Under the pieces are notes generated by a model. It was not told where the DNA came from. It ran no database searches and saw only the letters and a list, made by a program, of their open reading frames with translations. From assembly GCA_000002435.2 (NCBI GenBank), contig CM018791.1: a stretch of 64,000 nt of DNA; one strand, given 5' to 3'. The position numbers and the translations under genes were made by a program. The stretch comes from Giardia intestinalis. Lineage: Eukaryota. Shown in pieces: positions 1,109-60,379 of this stretch; position 1 is the stretch's first letter; every line of letters starts with the position of its first letter.

Positions 1109-1180
1109 GGGGACCACCGGGGATCGAACCCGGGACCTCTCGCACCCAAAGCGAGAATCATACCACTAGACCATGGTCCC
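1109..1180 (-). tRNA. tRNA-Pro: tRNA-Pro, anticodon TGG
   Basis: The reverse complement reads GGGACCATGGTCTAGTGGTATGATTCTCGCTTTGGGTGCGAGAGGTCCCGGGTTCGATCCCCGGTGGTCCCC. It has a 7-bp acceptor stem (GGGACCA/TGGTCCC) and an anticodon stem CTCGC/GCGAG with loop TTTGGGT, giving anticodon TGG. The body is nearly identical to canonical eukaryotic tRNA-Pro. Confidence 0.85.
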
Positions 1181-12202: not shown

Positions 12203-12416
12203 GACTTTAACTTTTTTAGCGCGATTGGGTTCTCAGTCAATCTACTTGACTATTAATTGTAGCGTGTAATGAAATTAAAATATAAACTAAAAATGATTCC
12301 ATTATTTATAGGCTTATATGTATACAAGGTCCCGCATTTGGTTCTGTTGGATTCACTTTAAAACATGCACCCCACACTATATATCTTTAGATAGATAGTT
12401 ATTTACTCTTATGTAC

Positions 12417-15029
12417 TTACTTTGTTGCCTTTTCCGTTATTCGCTTCGGTATATCCTTCACACTCATTGCAAGGCTTTCTGGTGTGAAAGTAACGTGGTG
12501 CTGCTTTATTCGGGCTATGTCACGGAGTCTTTCCCATTTCGAGTCTTCTGTTGTAACCCGAAATGTAAGGCCTGACTGAGCGTTTAGGTAAGTTAGTAAA
12601 GTGTGGGAGAGGTTGTGCATACCACTTCCACCTCCTATAAACACTACTTCAATTGGTGCCTGGGGAAGATCAGAAACACGCTCCTGATCTTCCTGAGGCT
12701 CACTAGATGGGCCGCATGGCAACTTGTTCCACTGGGCCAAAACATTACTTTCTGCGGAAAATATACCGGAGCCCTGTGTCTGTGTGATGTAGCTGTTAGT
12801 TTCCCTGGCTACAGATAGCACTAGGTCTCCAATTCCGGAGACGCTAGAGCCCATTAACCGTGGATAGAAAAGCATCTGGGACGGAAAGATATGCTCATTG
12901 AATAGGAAAAGGCATACGCGCAGAGTTTTAGGGTCATCGGCCTCAAGAAAGCTGCTTAATGAGAGGTTGTTGAGGTACGCTTCTTTAAAGTACCCTGGAA
13001 CGCACTTCTTGTAAGTTATTGTAGGATGGGAGATATAAGGCCATATGATCGATGCATTTCTGTCAAAGTCTTGCACACTAACACCTAATTCTGCTAGCTT
13101 AAAAATTACCATATCCACCGCTTCGGTTGAATTAAGTAAGTATGTGTGTAGCTGGCGGATGACCTTTGCAGAAGATAGCTTCTCCATTGACGTGAAGCCG
13201 CTGAATTCTATTGCAGTGTCTACAAGCAAGTCTATATTTTTTCTTGTGCAGAAATTATTGTAATTGTACCGATCGGTTTGGAATTGAGCCTTCAATCGTG
13301 CATACAGCCGTGTTAAAATGGTAACAGCCTGGCTACGATCTAAAACGTTTCGATACACGTCCTTTGATGTCTCCGCAGAAGTTCGTACGGTGCTAGTGGA
13401 TGGAATACGCTTTATTTCTGGCTCATCATGCTCTGACTTGAGAGCGTTGTTAGATGGAAGAGTAAGTGGCTCCATGGAGATCAGCATGTCTGTGCTGCTA
13501 GTTACTATGTCATCTGTTTCTTCTTCTGCCTGTGCTTCTATTACCTCGTCACTCTCGTTTTCTTCCTCTACTATTGAACTATCGCCCTCAGGCTGATCAG
13601 AGTAGTCAGTATCAGAGCCAGCACGATCAACTTTATTCAGCTTAAATGCATCAGATCTATTCTTCTTTCTGTGGTTAGTCAACGGATTGCTCTCTGATGA
13701 ATTAGGTGTCTCCTGTTCATTACCGTGTACTCTGCTGGCACGCAGTCGTGCACGTTCCCTATTTGCCCAGACATTTCTTATGGAACTTCGCGAAATGCGT
13801 GCATTGATTAGTCCGAGCGTAGTGCTTCTGGCTTGCTTCTCTTCAGGGACTTCGGCCCCGTAAGAACAAGTATCTTGAAGTGCATTCAATTCGGCGATGC
13901 TTCCATGGAGCAGTCGAGCTGCTTCATGATCGCGTACCCCGTGGATAAGCTTAGTAAGGGTAGTGCGGCGGGCTTTTACAATAAAGCTTTGCCGTGCTTG
14001 AAGAAGCTCATTCTGCCGCGCTCCCTCAAAAAGCTCAATTAACAGTATTCCCGTGTGGATCATATTAGAGTGTCCCTTGGGATGAACATACGCTTCAGGG
14101 AACTTTGCTGAAAGAGACTCCATAACCTGCAGATAGCAGTTATATGCATCCATGGACATAGACAGATCAGAGTACCGTGTCTCCTGATAGAAAAGGGACT
14201 CCTTGTGCTGCTTGCACTTATTAAAGTGGTGGAGCATCTCTGCACACAGTTCATGATAAGTGTCTATTGAAAGAGCCACGCAGATGTGTGAGAGGACATA
14301 CTCTATAAACGTATTAGTAAACAAATGAGTGAATAGAGGGTAATGAATGTTTAGAAACTTGAGCAGCCAGAGTTGCACTGCTTGCATGCCGACAGGCAGC
14401 ACCTTAATAAGATGAGCGCTAGGAATGGAAAAGGTCTGCCTGGTTGTAGAGTAGAAGAGCGGATAGGCAGTAGTGCAACTATACCCTAGGTGAAGAACTA
14501 TCTGGAAGGGGTTCTTCGAGGAAAAGTAGAGCTCAGAAGGGGCAAATGAGACAGAAGTGGCTCCAAAATAGTGTAAGAAGATATCCGCTAGGATTATCAG
14601 TGAAAGCCGTGGGGTGCAGTAGGGAACAGTCACAAAAACAGGTATGCCTAGTACCTTCCGTGTCTCCTGAGCATCACTAGGAACCTGGGGCAAGGCAAAG
14701 GAAAACATATACTCCAGTATGTTCTGAACCAGTTCATAGTGAAGAAGCAGTCCACCCTTCCACTGCCCTTGCTCTTTTCCTCCATAAACGAACGGTGATC
14801 GAAAAGTCCTTCTCACAAAGTCTGCCTCTGTCATTTCGTTTCCCATCCTAAAGCATGAGTTCTTATTACGCGACTTGCTGACAGCAGTCCTCATTACATA
14901 GCGAGGCTCATCCTCCCCTAGAAATCCCAGCTGTATGGAGTGTGTCCCTAGATCGACTAAAAGCGTGTCGCTCTCAGGAATTGGGGATCCAGCGTACTTT
15001 CCACTAAAGGCAAAACGGCTTTGATCCAT
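12417..15029 (-). CDS. Actin-related protein, 870 aa: actin fold with very large insertions. It could be an Arp5/Arp8-like chromatin-remodeller subunit or a Giardia-specific Arp.
   Basis: The N-terminus LLVDLGTHSIQLGFLGEDEPRYVMRTAV aligns to actin [24 protein letters not shown]. The C-terminus VVFIGGGSGMHNLSHTLLTYL aligns to actin LSGGTTMYPGIADRMQKEI. An acidic insert of about 450 aa lies between them. Confidence 0.65.
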   Translation of the reverse strand: MDQSRFAFSGKYAGSPIPESDTLLVDLGTHSIQLGFLGEDEPRYVMRTAVSKSRNKNSCFRMGNEMTEADFVRRTFRSPFVYGGKEQGQWKGGLLLHYELVQNILEYMFSFALPQVPSDAQETRKVLGIPVFVTVPYCTPRLSLIILADIFLHYFGATSVSFAPSELYFSSKNPFQIVLHLGYSCTTAYPLFYSTTRQTFSIPSAHLIKVLPVGMQAVQLWLLKFLNIHYPLFTHLFTNTFIEYVLSHICVALSIDTYHELCAEMLHHFNKCKQHKESLFYQETRYSDLSMSMDAYNCYLQVMESLSAKFPEAYVHPKGHSNMIHTGILLIELFEGARQNELLQARQSFIVKARRTTLTKLIHGVRDHEAARLLHGSIAELNALQDTCSYGAEVPEEKQARSTTLGLINARISRSSIRNVWANRERARLRASRVHGNEQETPNSSESNPLTNHRKKNRSDAFKLNKVDRAGSDTDYSDQPEGDSSIVEEENESDEVIEAQAEEETDDIVTSSTDMLISMEPLTLPSNNALKSEHDEPEIKRIPSTSTVRTSAETSKDVYRNVLDRSQAVTILTRLYARLKAQFQTDRYNYNNFCTRKNIDLLVDTAIEFSGFTSMEKLSSAKVIRQLHTYLLNSTEAVDMVIFKLAELGVSVQDFDRNASIIWPYISHPTITYKKCVPGYFKEAYLNNLSLSSFLEADDPKTLRVCLFLFNEHIFPSQMLFYPRLMGSSVSGIGDLVLSVARETNSYITQTQGSGIFSAESNVLAQWNKLPCGPSSEPQEDQERVSDLPQAPIEVVFIGGGSGMHNLSHTLLTYLNAQSGLTFRVTTEDSKWERLRDIARIKQHHVTFTPESLAMSVKDIPKRITEKATK

Positions 15030-15290
15030 GGAGTCAGAAAGACTGGAGAGAAAGAGCCCTGGGGAGAAATTTTAAACGCGGACACCCCATCATCGGGAAT
15101 ATATTCACACTAGCATTGAAACTCTCTACCAGATAAGATGCACAATAACTGGCGACGTGCTAAGAGACTAAGGCCCGAGGGCCTCTACGATACACATACC
15201 GGAGAAGCTTGTCTTTCTTTCAGAATAGAAAAAGAGTCGATAATTATAACAATGGACGCAAGTGTGCATAGAACACACCCAGTCTCAGCC

Positions 15291-51944: not shown

Positions 51945-54303
51945 ATGCTTTATTCCGTCCCGCGAGTGTGTATCGCGTGTGTCTGTCTTGATTAATATCT
52001 ATGTTCACAATGTTGAAGTGGATCTATAGATACAGTTTCATCTTAAATGGATGGAAGAATAAGCGTTGAGTCAAGTGTTTGGATCGTTACCGCAGCGCTC
52101 CCTGCACCTTTCTCTTGCAGAATGCCAGTAGCTGAGCGGGAACGTGTCTACGAGAATAGCGAGCACCAAGGAGCAGGTGCATATGGCGTACGTGGCTGAG
52201 GTAAGTGTTGCTCTGCTACCCAACGCCCGACATGTACACTTTCGACTCGCTAAGCGATGCAGACAAAGATGCTAGCTTGGTCTGTAGTAGGTTTCCGATC
52301 CTTCTGCCCAGTGGCCTCTTGGATGAGCAACAGCCAACTGGAAAGTCGTCAATCGCTGGAACGCTCATACCACATAGTGGCCGCTCAAGAGGTGCAAGGG
52401 CTGCACACACCGCTGTGGATGGTGCGCTCTGTCAACGGCTCTCCACGCTGAGCTGGCCCTTAGCTGCTACTCTGTGGCCTCCGATGGGACGGGCATTATG
52501 AAGAGGTTTACTTGGAGAACCCCTGACATTGCGACGCCTATCCTGAGAAGACAATGCTAACTCGCGTAAGGTACTTCCACTGCTCATGCCCGTTGATCCA
52601 GATAACCCGTCCTGCATGCTTCGGATTGCCCTCTGCTGGCAACAGAGCAGCCACTATCCTGGGTGTCTCCTTCAGACACATTTTCATCTATGACGGTGCC
52701 TTCTGTCTCTTCTCTGGAGAGGCATAACCGTCCCAATCCAGACACCTTGCTCTCAGCATACACCTCGTATCTATCAGAGGCCAGGTGTTAGTCAACCATA
52801 TCCCGTGAGCATCAGCGCTGTGTCGCTATGTTACTTCCTGTCCCTCTTGAGGGGCGTATTCTGACCATCTTAGTGTTTCTATGATGGAGAGCTGTGGATC
52901 CGGAGGTGATTGTTGCTTTCTGGCCCCCCTCTGCTGTTCAGTAGACTGCAAGAGTGCCCTTCAGGAGTCGGTCCCCCAACCTTCTGTTCTCTCGAGGAAG
53001 TGGTCCTTGGATAGTGCCACCCAGAGGGCTCCCGAAGCCTCACTATATGGGTGCTGCTTTACAGACACTCCTGGAGCCTCCCTACAGAGTCGCTCAGTGG
53101 CGCAAGTCTTACCCATTGTCAGCGGGGGTCTCGGCTCTCAAGGACATCTCAGGGACAGCACGCCGGTGTCACTTCCTGACGGGGGCCAGGCGGGAGGCCG
53201 CTCACCCTTGTGGATCCGTCAGCGATAACGAGAGCACTAAGCCTGCCATCCTCGCTGGAGGTGCCGGCAAACGGTGCCCCGCATCCGCCCACGGAAGGGC
53301 TGAGTCGTGTGCTGTTGTCATAATATTCCATACTGGCGCAGATAAACCTCCCGGTGGCACTTGGGGATTCCCGACACGGTGCGCTAATATACTACTTGCT
53401 CGAGCTATCGCTCAGATCTGCGATCCCCGTGGTCTGGGCCAGGTGCCTTGAATGGCCTCCAGCCCTAGTAGGAGCACCGACCTGTGCTCCTTGTTCCAAA
53501 CAAGCATTCCGTCTATTGTGCCCAGCCCTGAAAGACTCGCTCCTTCGCAGGTGCCCGAGCCAAGCGCTGTCTGCCGCCCAGGAGGCGTGCTGGCATTCAA
53601 CAGAGAGGCTTGCAGATACCACAGACCTCGTTGGTAAAGCGCCTGGGCCCCTGCCCTGGGCACGAGTAAGAAGCCCCAGCAGTACTTCGCTGCGGACTAT
53701 GACACGGCTCCTGTGTGCACCAGGCGATGCACAGCAGCCACGAGTGTGCAGTCCTCTGCGCCTGCCCACCGATGACGCAGCTGGGGCCTGTGGGGCAGCA
53801 GGGCCGAGACATACATATGGGAGGCGCCAACGGGCATTGGGCTATTGGCCGTCAAATGGTGGGTATGACTTGAGAGGTGGCTCGCGGCAAGTAGTTTACT
53901 CGACCGCAGCAGACAGGATCGCCTTTAGCCTAAAACTGCCATGTGTTGGTAGATGCACCTGTGTCTCCCACCACTGTTCTGTGTGCCATTATTATATTCT
54001 GGCGTCTCTAGATTTGGCAGAGGCATCCAACAAGGAATTCACAACTAGAGGCTGGCCCAACAGCCAGAGAGGCGTCTATTGGGCTGTACACCCATGCACC
54101 GGGTTGTCTTGAAGGGGTCGTTCCCTCTCTAATCACGTGCCCTGTCCCCGGTCCGTACCGGCGAAAGTCTTACTGAGACACCCACTGTCCAGGATACTGA
54201 CCAGATCACCAGGCAGCTATTGGCCGGAATAAGGGAGAGCCGCTCTCCTTGGCATACTCTACCATGTGCGTGCAAGAATGGATGGACCATAAAGTGACGC
54301 CAC

Positions 54304-56727
54304 TCAGTTCTTCTTTCGGAAAACGAAAAACCAAACCAGCACAGCCGCCACACCGCCGACGACGAGGACCACGCCGATGGCGATGCCAGAGATGGCCCCC
54401 GACGAGAGGGCGGACTTTTTGGAGGTGTTGTCGTACTCCAGACATATGGGCTTGACTGCGCCCTCTGGAACCACGCAGAGGCTGCACTTGGAGATCACCT
54501 TGTGACACGCCTTGCACGTGCTCTCGGAGAAGTAGTACCCGGCCAGGCAGTCGAAGCATGCCTCCCCATGAGGACAGGTGGCGCAGCCCTTGGAGCACGC
54601 CTTGCATACCTCCTTCTCCAGGTAGAACCCGCTGTTGCAGGCGCTGCAGACCCCACTACTACACATTGCACAGTTCGTCGGGCATGTAAGGAGCGTTCCG
54701 TTGTACGTTATCCCGTACCCGGCCACGGTGCTATCACACCAGCCGTCGCTCGCCTTCGTGCAGACAGTCTTCCCGGGGAGGAGCGTGGAGGTGTAGCACC
54801 CCCCGTTGAGGCTGAAGGAGTTCGAGCTGCAAGCAACACACCTACCGGCGGCGACATTCGCACACGCGATGCCAGCCGCCCGCGAGCTGGAGGAGGTGCA
54901 CGCCCCGTTGTTGGGGTACTCCGTGCTCTTGACGCAGCGCGAGCAGTAGCTGGTCCCGCCCACCGTGAGCCCGCACTCTGCGCAGCTGCTGTCCTGCACG
55001 CACTGCGGGACGCACGATCCCTTGGTACCGTCGCTGTACTCCAATCGCCTCTTGGCAGGGCAGGCGGTGCAGTCGCCGGATGCCGGTCCGCTGCACGTGG
55101 CACACTCAGAGCTACACGGCTTGCATTCTCCCGAGCCCTCGACGTAGAACCCGTCCCTGCACGTCTTGCACTTGGATTCCGACTCGCAGACTGCGCAGTT
55201 GCCGAGCGTGCACGCCACGCACCTCGAGACGCCGCCCACGGTGGCCTTGTAGTACCCGGCGGAGCCCAGGCAGTCCTTCACGCACAGACCGTGGGGGTCG
55301 AGGCTGTGGTCATCGGTACACTTTGTGCACACGTCTCTGTCCTCGCACGTGTCGCAGTTGGGGTCCTTGCACTTGGTCGCCACGCACTGACTATCGGAGA
55401 GTGTGTAGCCATACTTGCACTTCTTACAGCTCGACTCGTCGCACTCAGCGCAGTTCTCCACCGCGCACCCGACACACTTCCCGTCCTTCAGATAGGACCC
55501 GTCATCGCACGCGCAGCTGTGGGTCGAGGATGAGGACCCCTGTATGCCCTTCTGCCCCTTGGGACAGCTGGCCAGGCAGCTCCTCTTATCCAGGCTCAGG
55601 TAGAGGTCGCGGCACTCCAGACACTGAAGACCACTGTCCTTCATCTCACACCTTTGGCATCCCTCTATTCCCCCGTTGGCTGAGTCTCCACAGTGCCAGC
55701 ATCTGCTATTCCTGGTGAACACCTCTTTGGTTGAACTGTTACATGCGGTACACACATTGTTTTGCACTGTCTGACAAATCTGAGACCCTACTTGATCCAG
55801 AATATTGTTAAATAAGTAGCATCCACCATAAAACAAGAAGTATTGCCCGTTGCTATCATTCTTACAAGATGTACATTTTCCTGTTTTAGGGTCTTTTGTA
55901 CAAATATCATCAAATCCGCTGATTGACCTACAGAGGCCATTCTGAGGCACTTCTGATGAATTGGCGCACTGTGTGCACAACGATTGTCCCCGTACATCTA
56001 TAGTATTTCTTGATAAACAGATACTGTTGCCAGTTATGCTACCTATAGCATAACATGCAGAAGCGCTCCATACATAAGCCTTTGGACAGTAGTCACAATA
56101 GCCAAAAGCAGCTATGTTAGAAGCAGGCTTGCATCGATAATCAAAGGGGCACATGTTTGAATCTGAGCACGTCTCACAATCAGCCTCAACCTTCCCTGAC
56201 AATCTCGGTTGACTGCATTGTTGGCAATTATACACGCCACTGTGCCCACCAAAACCTATTGGGTCCCCGCAGTGAATACAGCGTTCAAGAGAAGTAGCAT
56301 TAGGATTAGTAAAGACGAGTGATGGGTATCCTTCGACGCCTTTTCCGCACTCTTTACAAAGCCCATTTTCTGCGCGGTGACAAATGGTTTTTTTCCATGG
56401 ACTATCTAAATTATAGCAGCCACCATAAAATAAGAAATAGTCACCGTTACATTTTGTGCACCATCCACCCGTCGGTGATTTGACACATACAGATCCTGTG
56501 CTAGCCTGATCCTTAATAGAAACACATTTCCCATTGATGGGAACATGTCCAGAAGTGCATTCTGTGCAGAGAAACATAGTTAAATTTATCAGGCATTTAT
56601 CCTGAAGACAGTTTAATACTGCATCTTTACATGAGTATCCAAACCCATTATGATATATAGGTACCTCTTCAGAGAAGAACACTGTCAACAGGCAAGTTGA
56701 TATTAGGGACAGCGAGAATGGCCTCAT
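54304..56727 (-). CDS. High cysteine membrane protein (HCMP), 807 aa: VSP-like CXXC-rich ectodomain, one C-terminal TM helix and a short basic tail (RKKN) instead of CRGKA
   Basis: N-terminal signal peptide MRPFSLSLISTCLLTVFF. Dozens of CXXC / CxC motifs and repeated …GQYFLFYGGCY… modules. The C-terminus is …GIAIGVVLVVGGVAAVLVWFFVFRKKN. Confidence 0.85.
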   Translation of the reverse strand: MRPFSLSLISTCLLTVFFSEEVPIYHNGFGYSCKDAVLNCLQDKCLINLTMFLCTECTSGHVPINGKCVSIKDQASTGSVCVKSPTGGWCTKCNGDYFLFYGGCYNLDSPWKKTICHRAENGLCKECGKGVEGYPSLVFTNPNATSLERCIHCGDPIGFGGHSGVYNCQQCSQPRLSGKVEADCETCSDSNMCPFDYRCKPASNIAAFGYCDYCPKAYVWSASACYAIGSITGNSICLSRNTIDVRGQSLCTQCANSSEVPQNGLCRSISGFDDICTKDPKTGKCTSCKNDSNGQYFLFYGGCYLFNNILDQVGSQICQTVQNNVCTACNSSTKEVFTRNSRCWHCGDSANGGIEGCQRCEMKDSGLQCLECRDLYLSLDKRSCLASCPKGQKGIQGSSSSTHSCACDDGSYLKDGKCVGCAVENCAECDESSCKKCKYGYTLSDSQCVATKCKDPNCDTCEDRDVCTKCTDDHSLDPHGLCVKDCLGSAGYYKATVGGVSRCVACTLGNCAVCESESKCKTCRDGFYVEGSGECKPCSSECATCSGPASGDCTACPAKRRLEYSDGTKGSCVPQCVQDSSCAECGLTVGGTSYCSRCVKSTEYPNNGACTSSSSRAAGIACANVAAGRCVACSSNSFSLNGGCYTSTLLPGKTVCTKASDGWCDSTVAGYGITYNGTLLTCPTNCAMCSSGVCSACNSGFYLEKEVCKACSKGCATCPHGEACFDCLAGYYFSESTCKACHKVISKCSLCVVPEGAVKPICLEYDNTSKKSALSSGAISGIAIGVVLVVGGVAAVLVWFFVFRKKN

Positions 56728-59700
56728 GACAAATATTATTCTTTATTAAATATTAGCGAGAATTGAGCCCAATATATTGACTAAGCTGTTGGAAGCGATA
56801 TTTGGAAGTAAAGCCATTAGAATACTATCTGTCGCGCTTGCTGAGGATATAGCATAACATCGAGATTTACAGAAAAGATTACTCTATTTACACTAATCAC
56901 CGAATCACACGATGGTCTAATCAGTCTATAACCTTACTCCCTAGCAAGATTTACAAAACTACTCTGTTTGTCTCTGTCGTCAAAAGGATTTTTCTGTCTT
57001 AACATTAGTAATATAACTACTGTTCCTAAGGCTTCACAAGGTTTGCAGTATAGAGGGTTTTTAATGGAGGATGTGCTGAAAGAATGTACCTGGCACATAC
57101 TGTACCTTGTGAAGGAGCTTCTGCTGTTAGGAATATCTCCTTGGTAGTTGTAAGTAAATCAATTGTGGACAAGCTACTCGCAGAGCTATACACTATTCGG
57201 GAAATCACATATCTCCTTGTTTCGAAGTATCCATGTCTGTGGAAACTAATACCAGTGACACTTTTGTTAAACGAAACACTACGATGGAAGCACTAGTAGA
57301 TCTTATTAAAGGCTTGGAAGTACAGCAAAGGAGAAAATGGAGCGGTATATCGTGTCATTAGAAGGCCTTACCTACTTCTATAAATCATATCTTAACCTCG
57401 AGCTACTTAACGTACTTTCCTTTTGAGAAAAGGTCGTAACCTATGTGACTAAAATCCTTCTATTCTACTGATGAATCGTTGTTCACAAGGAGTACCTTGT
57501 CACTTGAAGCATATAAACGTCTAGATATCATGTTGTAATAGGTACTCTGTTTGAACACCTGTCCACAGAAGAAGTGCACACTCTAGAGAGCATGAAGATG
57601 CAGCCAAGGTGGTTCTGAAAACATGGTCTGCCGTGAATCTGTCTGGCTTATTGCAGAGAACTACTTACCGTTCTCGCTCACGTTTGATATTCTATGCCGC
57701 TGGGCCCGCCTGGGGCGCACTCAGAGGCCCACGGGCAGCCCGCCCAAGCCTGATCCGTCCGAGGGTGGTTGTAGGCAGCAAGCAGGAGTTCCCCTCCACT
57801 AGTGCAGAGGGACGATCAGGGTCCCGTGCAATCGTCGGTGCCTGTGCCTCCGTGTCTCGGGGAGTGCAACGCGGGCTGGAGATCAGACCAGCCCGGCGAC
57901 CAGAGCAGAGCCCGACAAGTGCAAGGCGGTGGGCGTGGGTGTCATCCAGCAACTGCATGGATACCACAGCGAGAAGGTCAAGAAGCGCAGGGACGTTCTC
58001 AACCATCTACGGGATAGACGGCTCCCTTCACCCCAAACCAAAGAGGTACTGAGGGAGCCCAGTGGTGCCGGAGGGGGCCGGCCTGGGCCTTCATTGTCCG
58101 CGTGGCAGCCAACGAGCACCCGACGACCATCTCCTGCCAGCATCTTCTAATCACCAAGTGGGCCCACTATGGGACCAGAATGACTACGACTGAGAAGGCG
58201 TACTGACTCGGAGCCTGGGTGATCTCCCATACAAGCCACCGCCGCCCTGGGCAGGTCTCTCGCCCACGCACGGCTGGGATCAGAAGTTCGAGAGTCGAAT
58301 CTCCTCGGATCCCTGCAGAAGAAGCCCAAGCGGAGATCCGACGGCCCTGGTACTCAGCCCCAGCAAGCATCAGCCCCGCGACTGCCCGATGAGGGAGCCA
58401 CCGAAGAAAGCTTGTAGAGGCTCGAAGAAGAGAGTCTAGAGAGCAGCCGATAGAGTGAGCAGGGGGCCCACACCTCCCTGTCATGGAGAGCGGCGCATGG
58501 TGGCAGGCTCTCAATGGTCCCAATGGGGTCACTCGCTGACTACACGAACTGGCTCAAGGATGCTGGAGTTCACTAAGAGACTGCACCCTTGGGGACCTCC
58601 TACGCGATCCACAGCACGAGGAGCTGCCACGCCTCCTTCACATCACCGGAGGGCCCTGAGCAGCACGTCTCGGGAACCCTCTCCGTCTGAGCTCCTTCTG
58701 CAGCCTTGCGACAGACAGACGGTGCCAGCCCACGCACCAGGTCTCGGCGCCCGAGCGCGGTGTCCCGCGTGGGCCCTCACCATTGCCTGCCATGATGCCC
58801 CGGACAGAAAGCATCGGACCGGAGCGCTTCCCAGACTCCCCGGAGGCGCTCAGGGACGACCTCAACTATCTGCCAGGACAGGTTGAGTGTGCGGTTGAGA
58901 GACCAGCAACACCAGAGCGCCCTTGAGTTGTTCGCGGCCCGGTGGAGCCAGGTCAGCCCTTGCCTCAAACAGGGGTCCCAGTCGCTGGCTGTCCCCAGAG
59001 GGTCCTGGAACCTGCAGAACTCTACAAGGGAGACGTCGCCCCGGACACACACCAGTGCACTGTGAACCCCACCCCTCACGGGGGAGAGATCAGGTATCAC
59101 ACCAAGAACGAGGACCTTAGGAACCTGATGGAGAGGAGCGCCCTACGCTGGAGTGGCACCAGGCGAACGCCAAAGTAGTAGGAGCGGAAGAGCACGTGCC
59201 CGTCCTGCGCGAAGACCCTCCGCGGCGAGGCCGTCCAGACGTATGCAGCACAGACACCGGATGCAGGGTGCTACTGAGTGGGGCAACGGGGATGGAGAAG
59301 GACGTCCCCCTCAGCGCCCTTCGTGCGAGCGTGCTCAGGGGAGGGTACCTAACACCCCGCAGAGCTCCAGTCGAGAGCCGAGGAGACGCGCCTCGCTCAC
59401 ACAGCGGGGAAGCGGAGGAGCGGCATTCACCACCCCACTGCCCGGCCTGAAGCCTCGCCTCGAGGGGGAGCTGCCCCCTAACAGCGCCACCGACGACCAG
59501 CACCTTGCTATCCAGAGGGCCGGATCAGGACGGCCTGGCCCCTGAGAGACAAGAGCCCCCTCAGCCATCGGAGAGCACGGACGGCCAGTCCGCGGGGCTC
59601 GAAGTCCCCGGGCCTGCGTTGGCGAGTCCATCCGGGTGCAGGCCTTCAGCGAGATCCTCAGCGCGATCCATAGGATGGAATGCATGCTCTGTACGGTTTC

Positions 59701-60379
59701 GCCTGGCCCTTCCCCAAGAACGAGACAGGACAACCACGATCAGCGGACGATCATGATGCGCTCCACAACACAGTTCCAAGGAGCTGCGTCGGGACCTTCC
59801 TCCGGCTGCGCCACGCTGCACTCCTGGACTCGGTCCCTCGGGACCCTGCGCATGCCCCCATACTGCGTGGTACAGAACCTGCTCACCAGGAGCTGAAGGA
59901 GATACTCCACTCACTGCCCATGCCGACGACACACCCATCTTCCATAGTAGCGGCAGTGACGCGACAGGGTAGTCACAGAGGCGACAGGCCTGGTGAAGCA
60001 ACATGGCTCGACGGTCACCACCGGGTGCAGGAGCACAGAGGAGCAGGAGGCCTCCTTCTTGGCCGGTCTCAAGGAGCCCCCAGGGCAACCGAGGGCCGAA
60101 GCTAGTGATGGTACTAATCACTCGCCACACTTGTTGAGACGGACCCACACGTGACCCATATGAATCCCTCGACAAGAAATAGGACTTGGGGTGCTTGGCT
60201 GGCAGAGGCGGACTGATCCTGCCCGCACCGGAGAGTGGTGGCGGCTCACATGAGAGATCACTCAGGTAGTAGGTGACCTCACCCCGGTGACACGGAGAGT
60301 AAATTAGTATCCTAGCCAGATTAAGTATTTTCATTGTAACAATCTTAGTTTGAAAATAATTATAGATTGTACTTCGCAT

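Follow-up and report, generated by a model that had tools for sequence, protein, structure and literature searches.

A probable, highly divergent Arp5 orthologue in Giardia intestinalis with a long insertion in its actin fold

The Arp5 (ACTR5) subunits of INO80, described from yeast, C. thermophilum (PDB 6FHS, 6FML and 8AV6) and human (PDB 6HTS and 7ZI4), are the closest known counterparts of the gene reported here. In yeast, fungal and human INO80, Arp5 is paired with Ies6 and seated on the RuvBL1/2 ring, from which it touches H2A–H2B and DNA near superhelical locations SHL-2/-3 (PMC7171469). It acts as a counter-grip for the Ino80 motor, which pumps DNA at SHL-6, and couples ATP hydrolysis to sliding (PMC7171469). 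Its actin fold docks on the RuvBL1/2 ring and on the Ino80 insertion, while subdomain 4 carries a large insertion, the 'grappler', that extends over the nucleosome (PMC7171469, PMC11754651). The grappler places an arginine anchor in the nucleosome acidic pocket, and a second, hydrophobic and acidic surface takes free H2A–H2B (PMC11754651). Here we analyse a gene for an actin-related protein (ARP) in a 64,000-nucleotide stretch of Giardia intestinalis DNA (assembly GCA_000002435.2, contig CM018791.1; hereafter the window), and find that it is probably a very divergent orthologue of Arp5.

The gene is an uninterrupted open reading frame (ORF) from ATG to TAA at 12417..15029 on the minus strand, exactly where the initial annotation, made from the sequence alone, had placed it. 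It encodes 870 amino acids (aa), and the acidic peptide singled out at that stage, EEENESDEVIEAQAEEETDD, corresponds to residues 488–507. The protein is identical at every residue to XP_001710055.1 (UniProt A8B2U9) of G. intestinalis WB clone C6, which marks the window as DNA of assemblage A. The gene was therefore known beforehand, under the generic annotation 'Actin related protein', a name also carried by other Giardia genes such as GL50803_8726; the Arp5 assignment is the new part. Orthologues are present in assemblage E (P15; 87–88% identity), in assemblage B (78%), in a further Giardia lineage (74%) and in G. muris (TNJ28594.1; 39%), and a more distant relative of 750 aa with 27% identity, P0037, is a eukaryotic protein from run SRR31929897. 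The ratio of nonsynonymous to synonymous substitution rates (dN/dS) relative to assemblage E is 0.10 overall. The exact match to XP_001710055.1, the orthologues in assemblages B and E and in G. muris, and this low ratio indicate that the gene is real and functional.

In the Giardia protein, as in Arp5, the actin fold is interrupted once, at an identical point in subdomain 4, by a very large insertion whose first helix can be aligned between the two. The variants D-x-G-S/T-H/Y, RSPF, C-N/T-P and, for the actin motif DSGDG, G-Y/H-S are shared, and Arp5 is the nearest relative by sequence, profile and Foldseek. By contrast, the Giardia insertion is the longest of the set (446 aa, compared with 242–356 aa), is much less charged, is dissimilar beyond its first helix to the canonical K/R/E-rich grappler, and includes a variable, acidic loop of around 130 aa that is predicted to be disordered. 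Arp8 (ACTR8), of the same family of complexes, is likewise nuclear, large and insertion-bearing, but shares no detectable sequence kinship with the Giardia protein past the common actin fold and is reported to be absent from metamonads. Arp6 and Swc6 are to SWR1 what Arp5 and Ies6 are to INO80. In the structures aligned, Arp6 lacks a large insertion at this position, and it does not occur among the sequence matches. The ARPs of the SWR1-like SNF2 complex of T. brucei, modelled as 'ARP5/8' (PMC9236257), offer a parallel of another kind: they too are divergent protist nuclear ARPs, placed in a subfamily by remote-homology modelling in a lineage with a reduced remodeller repertoire. They differ in belonging to an experimentally purified, H2A.Z-depositing complex, whereas the Giardia protein is known from sequence and Giardia lacks H2A.Z.

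Placement in the Arp5 subfamily

We assigned the protein by pairwise, profile and Foldseek scores rather than by a tree. Searching all PDB sequences with phmmer gave C. thermophilum Arp5 at E = 2.7e-5, compared with E of around 1 for actins. A profile built from five near-identical Giardia orthologues proved less sensitive than the single sequence (Arp5 at 0.015 versus 2.7e-5) and was replaced by a diplomonad-only profile that included the G. muris protein and P0037, which was used to avoid circularity. With this profile, human Arp5 was matched in the PDB at 1.3e-9 and C. thermophilum Arp5 at 7e-8, compared with actin from 2e-4. Four Arp5 entries head its 60 best PDB matches (all E ≤ 8.2e-3), and Arp1, Arp2, Arp3, Arp4, Arp6, Arp7, Arp8, Arp9 and Arp10 are all missing from those 60, so that each must score worse than 8e-3. 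The comparison with ARP subfamilies that the initial annotation had suggested as a check comes out in favour of Arp5. In like-for-like hhalign comparisons with the same profile, single Arp5 sequences reached E values of 8e-11 to 1.3e-19, as against 1.9e-5 for a single beta-actin.

An exhaustive phmmer search of 1.84 billion representative proteins returned 10 proteins: those of Giardia, G. muris and P0037, two fragments, and otherwise Arp5s of 650–755 aa. All full-length proteins from outside the diplomonads in this set are Arp5s. One of them, P0044, aligns along its entire length with the Arp5 of INO80 (2e-83, compared with 5e-34 for actin), and the other full-length non-diplomonad matches score 126–260 bits against P0044 versus 50–124 bits against beta-actin. 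A second, word-indexed search with the diplomonad profile found only the same four Giardia proteins. The preference for Arp5 extends to the relatives, with 44 bits versus 4 bits for actin in the G. muris protein and 40 bits versus 15 bits in P0037. That these less divergent proteins likewise favour Arp5 speaks against a purely long-branch artefact. At the level of structure, the nine best Foldseek matches in the PDB are Arp5 chains of INO80 cryo-electron microscopy structures (E = 1e-10 to 7e-9), ranking above actin.

Several motifs of the actin core follow the same pattern. The phosphate-1 loop reads DLGTH in Giardia and in the Arp5 P0038, where actin has DNGSG; RSPF follows subdomain 2 in Giardia and in Arp5s, where actin has KYPI; and a subdomain 1 motif is CTP in Giardia, CNP in Arp5s and LNP in actin. 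The phosphate-2 loop, DSGDG in actin, is HLGYS in Giardia, S-x-G-H or L-G-Y/N in the Arp5s of the comparison set and S-G-Y-Q in human Arp5 as aligned in the PDB. Further towards the C terminus, Giardia NEHIFPSQMLFYPRLMG aligns with Arp5 ERIRVPEILFQPSMIG (in actin, ERFRCPEALFQPSFLG), and the GGG adenosine loop and the subdomain 1 tryptophan are retained, as IGGGSG and W832.

Both terminal segments belong to the actin fold; the refuting outcome set in the initial annotation, namely that neither segment would match it significantly, did not arise. In the N-terminal half, the Pfam Actin family (PF00022) matches residues 19–192 only, at 30.8 bits against a gathering cut-off of 27 (39.1 bits for G. 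muris and 48.6 bits for P0037), and hhalign aligns residues 11–355 with the Arp5 profile at a probability of 99.9% (E = 3.6e-36). In the C-terminal part, residues 699–840 align with the C-terminal actin fold of the Arp5 profile at 95.5–95.9% (E = 1.4e-8 to 5.6e-9), and this part also supplies the second stretch of the diplomonad-profile match to human Arp5. The AlphaFold2 model, built from a 12-sequence alignment, has predicted local distance difference test (pLDDT) scores of 73–93 over residues ~10–50, 95–270 and 710–860. Together the two segments make up a complete fold of four subdomains, 40% identical to G. muris over the actin core. The initial annotation was right that both ends match actin, but its assignment to subdomains 1 and 3/4 was too narrow: the N-terminal half holds subdomains 1, 2 and 3 and the first part of 4, and the C-terminal half the rest of 4, then 3 and 1. 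Two loops distinguish this core from Arp5: a 10-aa loop at residues 81–90 in subdomain 2 (VYGGKEQGQW), found in G. intestinalis only, and a poorly conserved loop of around 45 aa at approximately residues 745–790.

The 446-residue insertion

To locate the insertion we aligned the protein with a beta-actin whose identity was verified against ACTB (857.6 bits, residues 1–375 to 1–375). Actin residues 226 and 248, in subdomain 4, bracket the insertion, and this is the grappler site of Arp5. The window protein has 446 aa here, compared with 375 in G. muris, 296 in P0037 and 22 in actin; the earlier estimate of roughly 450 aa is therefore accurate.

Its composition is less extreme than had been thought. 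The initial annotation described a long acidic, serine-rich insertion, which holds only within the poorly conserved centre that is predicted to be disordered (residues ~433–563; net charge −14 over residues 481–510), where around 70 residues are truly acidic, but not for the whole, in which the net charge is −9 and around 310 of the 446 residues are helical, conserved and non-acidic. Two blocks flank this centre. Block A, in which the models predict helices over residues 255–432, has the lowest dN/dS in the protein; the canonical Arp5 insertion can be aligned from its start with the first long helix of this block (EGARQNELLQARQSFIVKARR), and the hhalign alignment reaches residue 355. It ends with an Arg-rich helix at residues 409–428 (RISRSSIRNVWANRxRAR) that is invariant among assemblages. 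The variable centre has pLDDT values of 26–37 and no secondary structure in the models, and is shorter by around 70 residues in G. muris and around 95 in P0037 (69 and 94 gap positions). Block B is 35% identical to G. muris and, at 29%, is the best-conserved region relative to P0037. This diplomonad-specific block is matched by nothing in the PDB, in Pfam or in the Arp5 insertion. Constraint on the two blocks is comparable to that on the two actin-fold halves (dN/dS 0.037 and 0.127, versus 0.066 and 0.092), and their identity to G. muris (35–37%) is close to the 40% of the core. By comparison of orthologues and predicted structure, therefore, a conserved helical domain makes up most of the insertion, which is not a low-complexity acidic spacer. 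We also considered a correspondence between Giardia DVYRNV and the Arp5 motif DW-x-VY, and dropped it because hhalign gave no support.

Proposed role and alternatives

By analogy with Arp5 in the characterized complexes, the actin core (residues 1–260 and 703–870) would serve for docking; its degenerate phosphate-2 loop, of the Arp5 type, makes catalytic turnover of ATP unlikely. The insertion would correspond to the grappler, with the two conserved helical blocks forming an arm, the invariant Arg-rich helix near its distal end and the variable acidic loop between the blocks. Such a protein would most likely provide a histone- and DNA-gripping counter-hold within a reduced Giardia INO80. Membership of INO80, nuclear localization, contact between the insertion and the nucleosome, and a role for the acidic loop are all suggested by the same analogy. 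The canonical charged grappler has an arginine anchor and an LLD region; the Arg-rich helix at residues 409–428 is a possible equivalent of the anchor, and the alignment to Arp5 stops at residue 355.

Several reports make such a complex plausible. RuvBL1 (GL50803_9825) and RuvBL2 (GL50803_17565) are reported for Giardia in a paper which states that metamonads 'retain a reduced INO80 complex' (PMC8516963); for GL50803_16370, a 1859-aa SNF2 protein, the best match in both human and yeast is INO80 (PMC3566956 Table S3, Gargantini et al. 2012); and TIP49 and a nuclear ARP were recovered in Giardia actin pull-downs (PMC8552679). Given these reports of both RuvBLs, a candidate motor and the actin interactors, we propose that this protein serves as Arp5 in a reduced Giardia INO80. 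Arp5 itself was not assessed in the comparative table of PMC8516963, and our literature search found no paper that links Giardia with Arp5 or mentions the accession.

A number of observations weigh against an Arp5 acting in INO80. The alignment behind the AlphaFold model held Arp5 sequences, which may have biased the Foldseek ranking. The protein lacks two features of Arp5: its T-E motif is without the conserved Glu, and there is no tail motif H-x-F-S-N-x-Y at the C terminus. The insertion is more weakly charged than in canonical Arp5s (D+E 14% and K+R 12%, compared with 18–23% and 15–22%), and residues 355–700 show no similarity to the Arp5 insertion (hhalign E = 0.18). Searched alone, the insertion gave no hmmsearch match in the PDB at E ≤ 10 and none in Pfam, and a model of the insertion only (pLDDT 51, predicted template modelling score 0.39) had no Foldseek neighbour (best E = 2.7). 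As for the complex, the table of Salas-Leiva et al. 2021 (PMC8516963 supplementary file 4) lists no Ies6, the partner of Arp5, and no Ies2 or Arp8 for Giardia, and leaves the cell for the Ino80 motor blank for G. intestinalis, in conflict with PMC3566956; with these subunits unlisted and the motor cell blank, the complex in which Arp5 would act is incompletely documented. Finally, we found no localization or interaction data on the window protein in the literature.

Three other explanations were considered. An Arp5 descendant could have been repurposed outside INO80, its diplomonad-specific helical domain serving another nuclear complex or a cytoskeletal or flagellar role, perhaps reflecting decay of the canonical INO80 module. 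The insertion core, unrecognizable next to that of Arp5 and yet strongly constrained, would fit such a change of function, as would the unreported Ies6, Ies2 and Arp8, the blank Ino80 cell (PMC8516963), the lack of H2A.Z (PMC9236257) and a few weak phmmer matches to trypanosomatid axonemal actin-like proteins. Those axonemal matches are, however, non-significant (E of around 1.3); Arp5-specific features are kept in the actin core under strong purifying selection, a candidate Ino80 motor and both RuvBLs have been reported, and accepted Arp5s themselves carry insertions that differ widely in length and sequence (242 to 356 aa in the comparison set). We consider repurposing unlikely. A fast-evolving actin or orphan ARP paralogue, made Arp5-like by long-branch effects and with an insertion gained independently at a permissive surface loop, would account for the low identity to Arp5s (17–19%) and for an insertion core that lacks homology to theirs. 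It would not account for five independent sequence-based tests that favour Arp5 by 5–14 orders of magnitude, for the same preference in the less divergent G. muris protein and P0037, for an identical insertion point with an alignable first helix, or for the phosphate-2 loop substitution pattern held in common with Arp5, and we regard it as very improbable.

Orthology to another insertion-bearing nuclear ARP, whether Arp8 of the INO80 A-module, Arp6 of SWR1 or Arp4, is close to refuted. Arp8 is also large, insertion-bearing and a member of INO80, but is reported absent in all metamonads (PMC8516963), and Giardia lacks H2A.Z, the substrate of SWR1/Arp6 (PMC9236257). None of the three appeared in the exhaustive search, and their chains are absent from the 60 best PDB matches (all E < 8.2e-3), the list led by four Arp5 entries. 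Where the initial annotation had left open an INO80-type ARP with a large insertion, Arp5- or Arp8-like, or a lineage-specific one, the phmmer and profile scores, Foldseek, the exhaustive search and the insertion site uphold Arp5, and Arp8 is rejected. Taken together, these data indicate that the window gene is probably a very divergent Giardia orthologue of Arp5 (ACTR5), the actin-fold subunit of INO80: a useful subfamily assignment for a known gene, and a divergent new member of the family.

If the protein is an Arp5, its grappler may have had reason to change. On the Giardia nucleosome the acidic patch is deeper and reshaped, and the canonical arginine-anchor peptide LANA does not bind (PMC8421212); H2A.Z is missing as well (PMC9236257). 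We speculate that a different nucleosome surface, together with the absence of H2A.Z exchange, could let a grappler diverge beyond recognition under strong constraint, which matches the pattern observed. A bolder version, which we consider rather doubtful, is that diplomonads rebuilt the grappler as a strongly constrained, weakly charged helical domain, bearing an Arg-rich helix at its distal end and a disordered acidic loop, that co-evolved with the reshaped acidic patch and perhaps replaced roles of the undetected Ies6, Ies2 and Arp8, giving a minimal INO80 with a non-canonical grip in an organism that lacks H2A.Z. As a reference for minimal eukaryotic systems, Giardia lacks both H2A.Z and a linker histone; the acidic patch of its unstable nucleosomes is altered, and its actin cytoskeleton has none of the canonical regulators. 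With the assignment, the reduced INO80 that has been inferred in metamonads would gain a subunit for gripping nucleosomes, and the protein offers a handle on how a remodeller engages a divergent nucleosome. A careful profile analysis could be expected to arrive at the same assignment; only the insertion, remodelled and constrained, merits experiment.

Gene features and neighbourhood

Coordinates of the gene, its parts and its neighbours are collected in Table 1. Giardia polyadenylation signals follow the consensus AGTRAAY, which a heptamer just past the stop codon matches. Giardia genes typically have a short AT-rich promoter or initiator, and TTTAAAATTT, upstream of the ATG, is a candidate for such an element.

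Table 1 Features of the Giardia ARP gene and of the window (residue numbers are those of the ARP)
Feature	Coordinates	Strand	Description
Complete coding sequence	12417..15029	-	870 codons plus TAA stop at 12417-12419; 'Actin related protein', placed in the Arp5 subfamily (probable)
N-terminal actin-fold half, residues 1-260	14250..15029	-	Subdomains 1, 2, 3 and first part of 4; motifs DLGTH (phosphate-1), RSPF, CTP, HLGYS (phosphate-2); pLDDT 73-91; dN/dS 0.066
Block A, residues 261-432	13734..14249	-	Predicted helical, net basic; identity 0.92 among assemblages, 37% to G. muris; dN/dS 0.037
Variable centre, residues 433-563	13341..13733	-	Predicted disordered, S/T-rich; identity 0.76 among assemblages, 26% to G. 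muris; dN/dS 0.25
Truly acidic stretch, residues 470-540	13410..13622	-	Includes EEENESDEVIEAQAEEETDD; net charge -14 in 481-510, -4 in 511-540
Block B, residues 564-702	12924..13340	-	Predicted helical, neutral, conserved (e.g. NFCTRKNIDLLVDTAIEFSGFTSMEKLSSAKVIRQLHTY); identity 0.90 among assemblages; dN/dS 0.127; pLDDT 58-89
C-terminal actin-fold half, residues 703-870 and stop	12417..12923	-	End of subdomain 4, then 3 and 1; motifs NEHIFPSQMLFYPRLMG, IGGGSG, W832; pLDDT 73-93; dN/dS 0.092
AGTAAAT, polyadenylation signal match	12401..12407	-	Begins 10 nt past the stop codon; read from sequence
AT-rich element TTTAAAATTT	15067..15076	-	38 nt 5' of the ATG; read from sequence; candidate promoter/initiator
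Small gene, 154 aa	15291..15755	-	Between the poly-kinase and ARP genes; gene called in assemblages B and E and in G. muris
Protein with six protein kinase domains, 2563 aa	15823..23514	-	Pfam Pkinase 511 bits; position 5' of the ARP locus kept to G. muris
Single-domain kinase, 321 aa	11237..12202	-	Gene downstream of the ARP gene
S/T/P-rich ORF, 909 aa	8278..11007	-	Sub-threshold match to Nucleoprotein TPR-like, 23.3 bits against a cut-off of 27; position kept in assemblages B and E (903 and 910 aa)
tRNA gene	1109..1180	-	No other Rfam match in the window reaches the gathering score

The order of the six-kinase-domain gene, the 154-aa gene and the ARP gene is kept in assemblages B and E and in G. 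muris. The ARP gene had been placed directly upstream of the poly-pseudokinase gene; by transcription it lies downstream, with the 154-aa gene between them and all three on the minus strand. The 'pseudokinase' label fits the replacement of HRD by HRS or HRN in at least the first and last kinase domains. Giardia genes are generally transcribed individually, and for this reason we attach no functional meaning to the adjacency of the kinase gene.

The 154-aa protein, which is 191 aa long in the ORF list, where it starts at a GTG further upstream and overlaps the end of the kinase gene, is 33% identical to its G. muris counterpart. Its N terminus (MPLPxLLxLPxKP) and C terminus (LFxRIxxxYxL) are conserved; the protein is S/T/P-rich and has no Pfam match. 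A similar size had made it a candidate for Ies6, which we rejected because it is S/T/P-rich and lacks a Pfam match and YL1-like features.

On the other side of the ARP gene, the position of the single-domain kinase is taken in assemblage B (L002:8972-10306) by a 444-aa kinase with ankyrin repeats, and no gene is called there in assemblage E; gene models or gene content 3' of the ARP gene may differ between assemblages. In G. muris (L004:9097-11895) the ARP orthologue is followed by a gene for a Piwi-domain protein, where G. intestinalis has the kinase and the 909-aa protein, so that synteny breaks directly 3' of the ARP gene. Elsewhere in the window, G+C content rises to 0.56–0.58 at 52001..56000 and to 0.635 at 58001..60000, compared with a window average of around 0.47.

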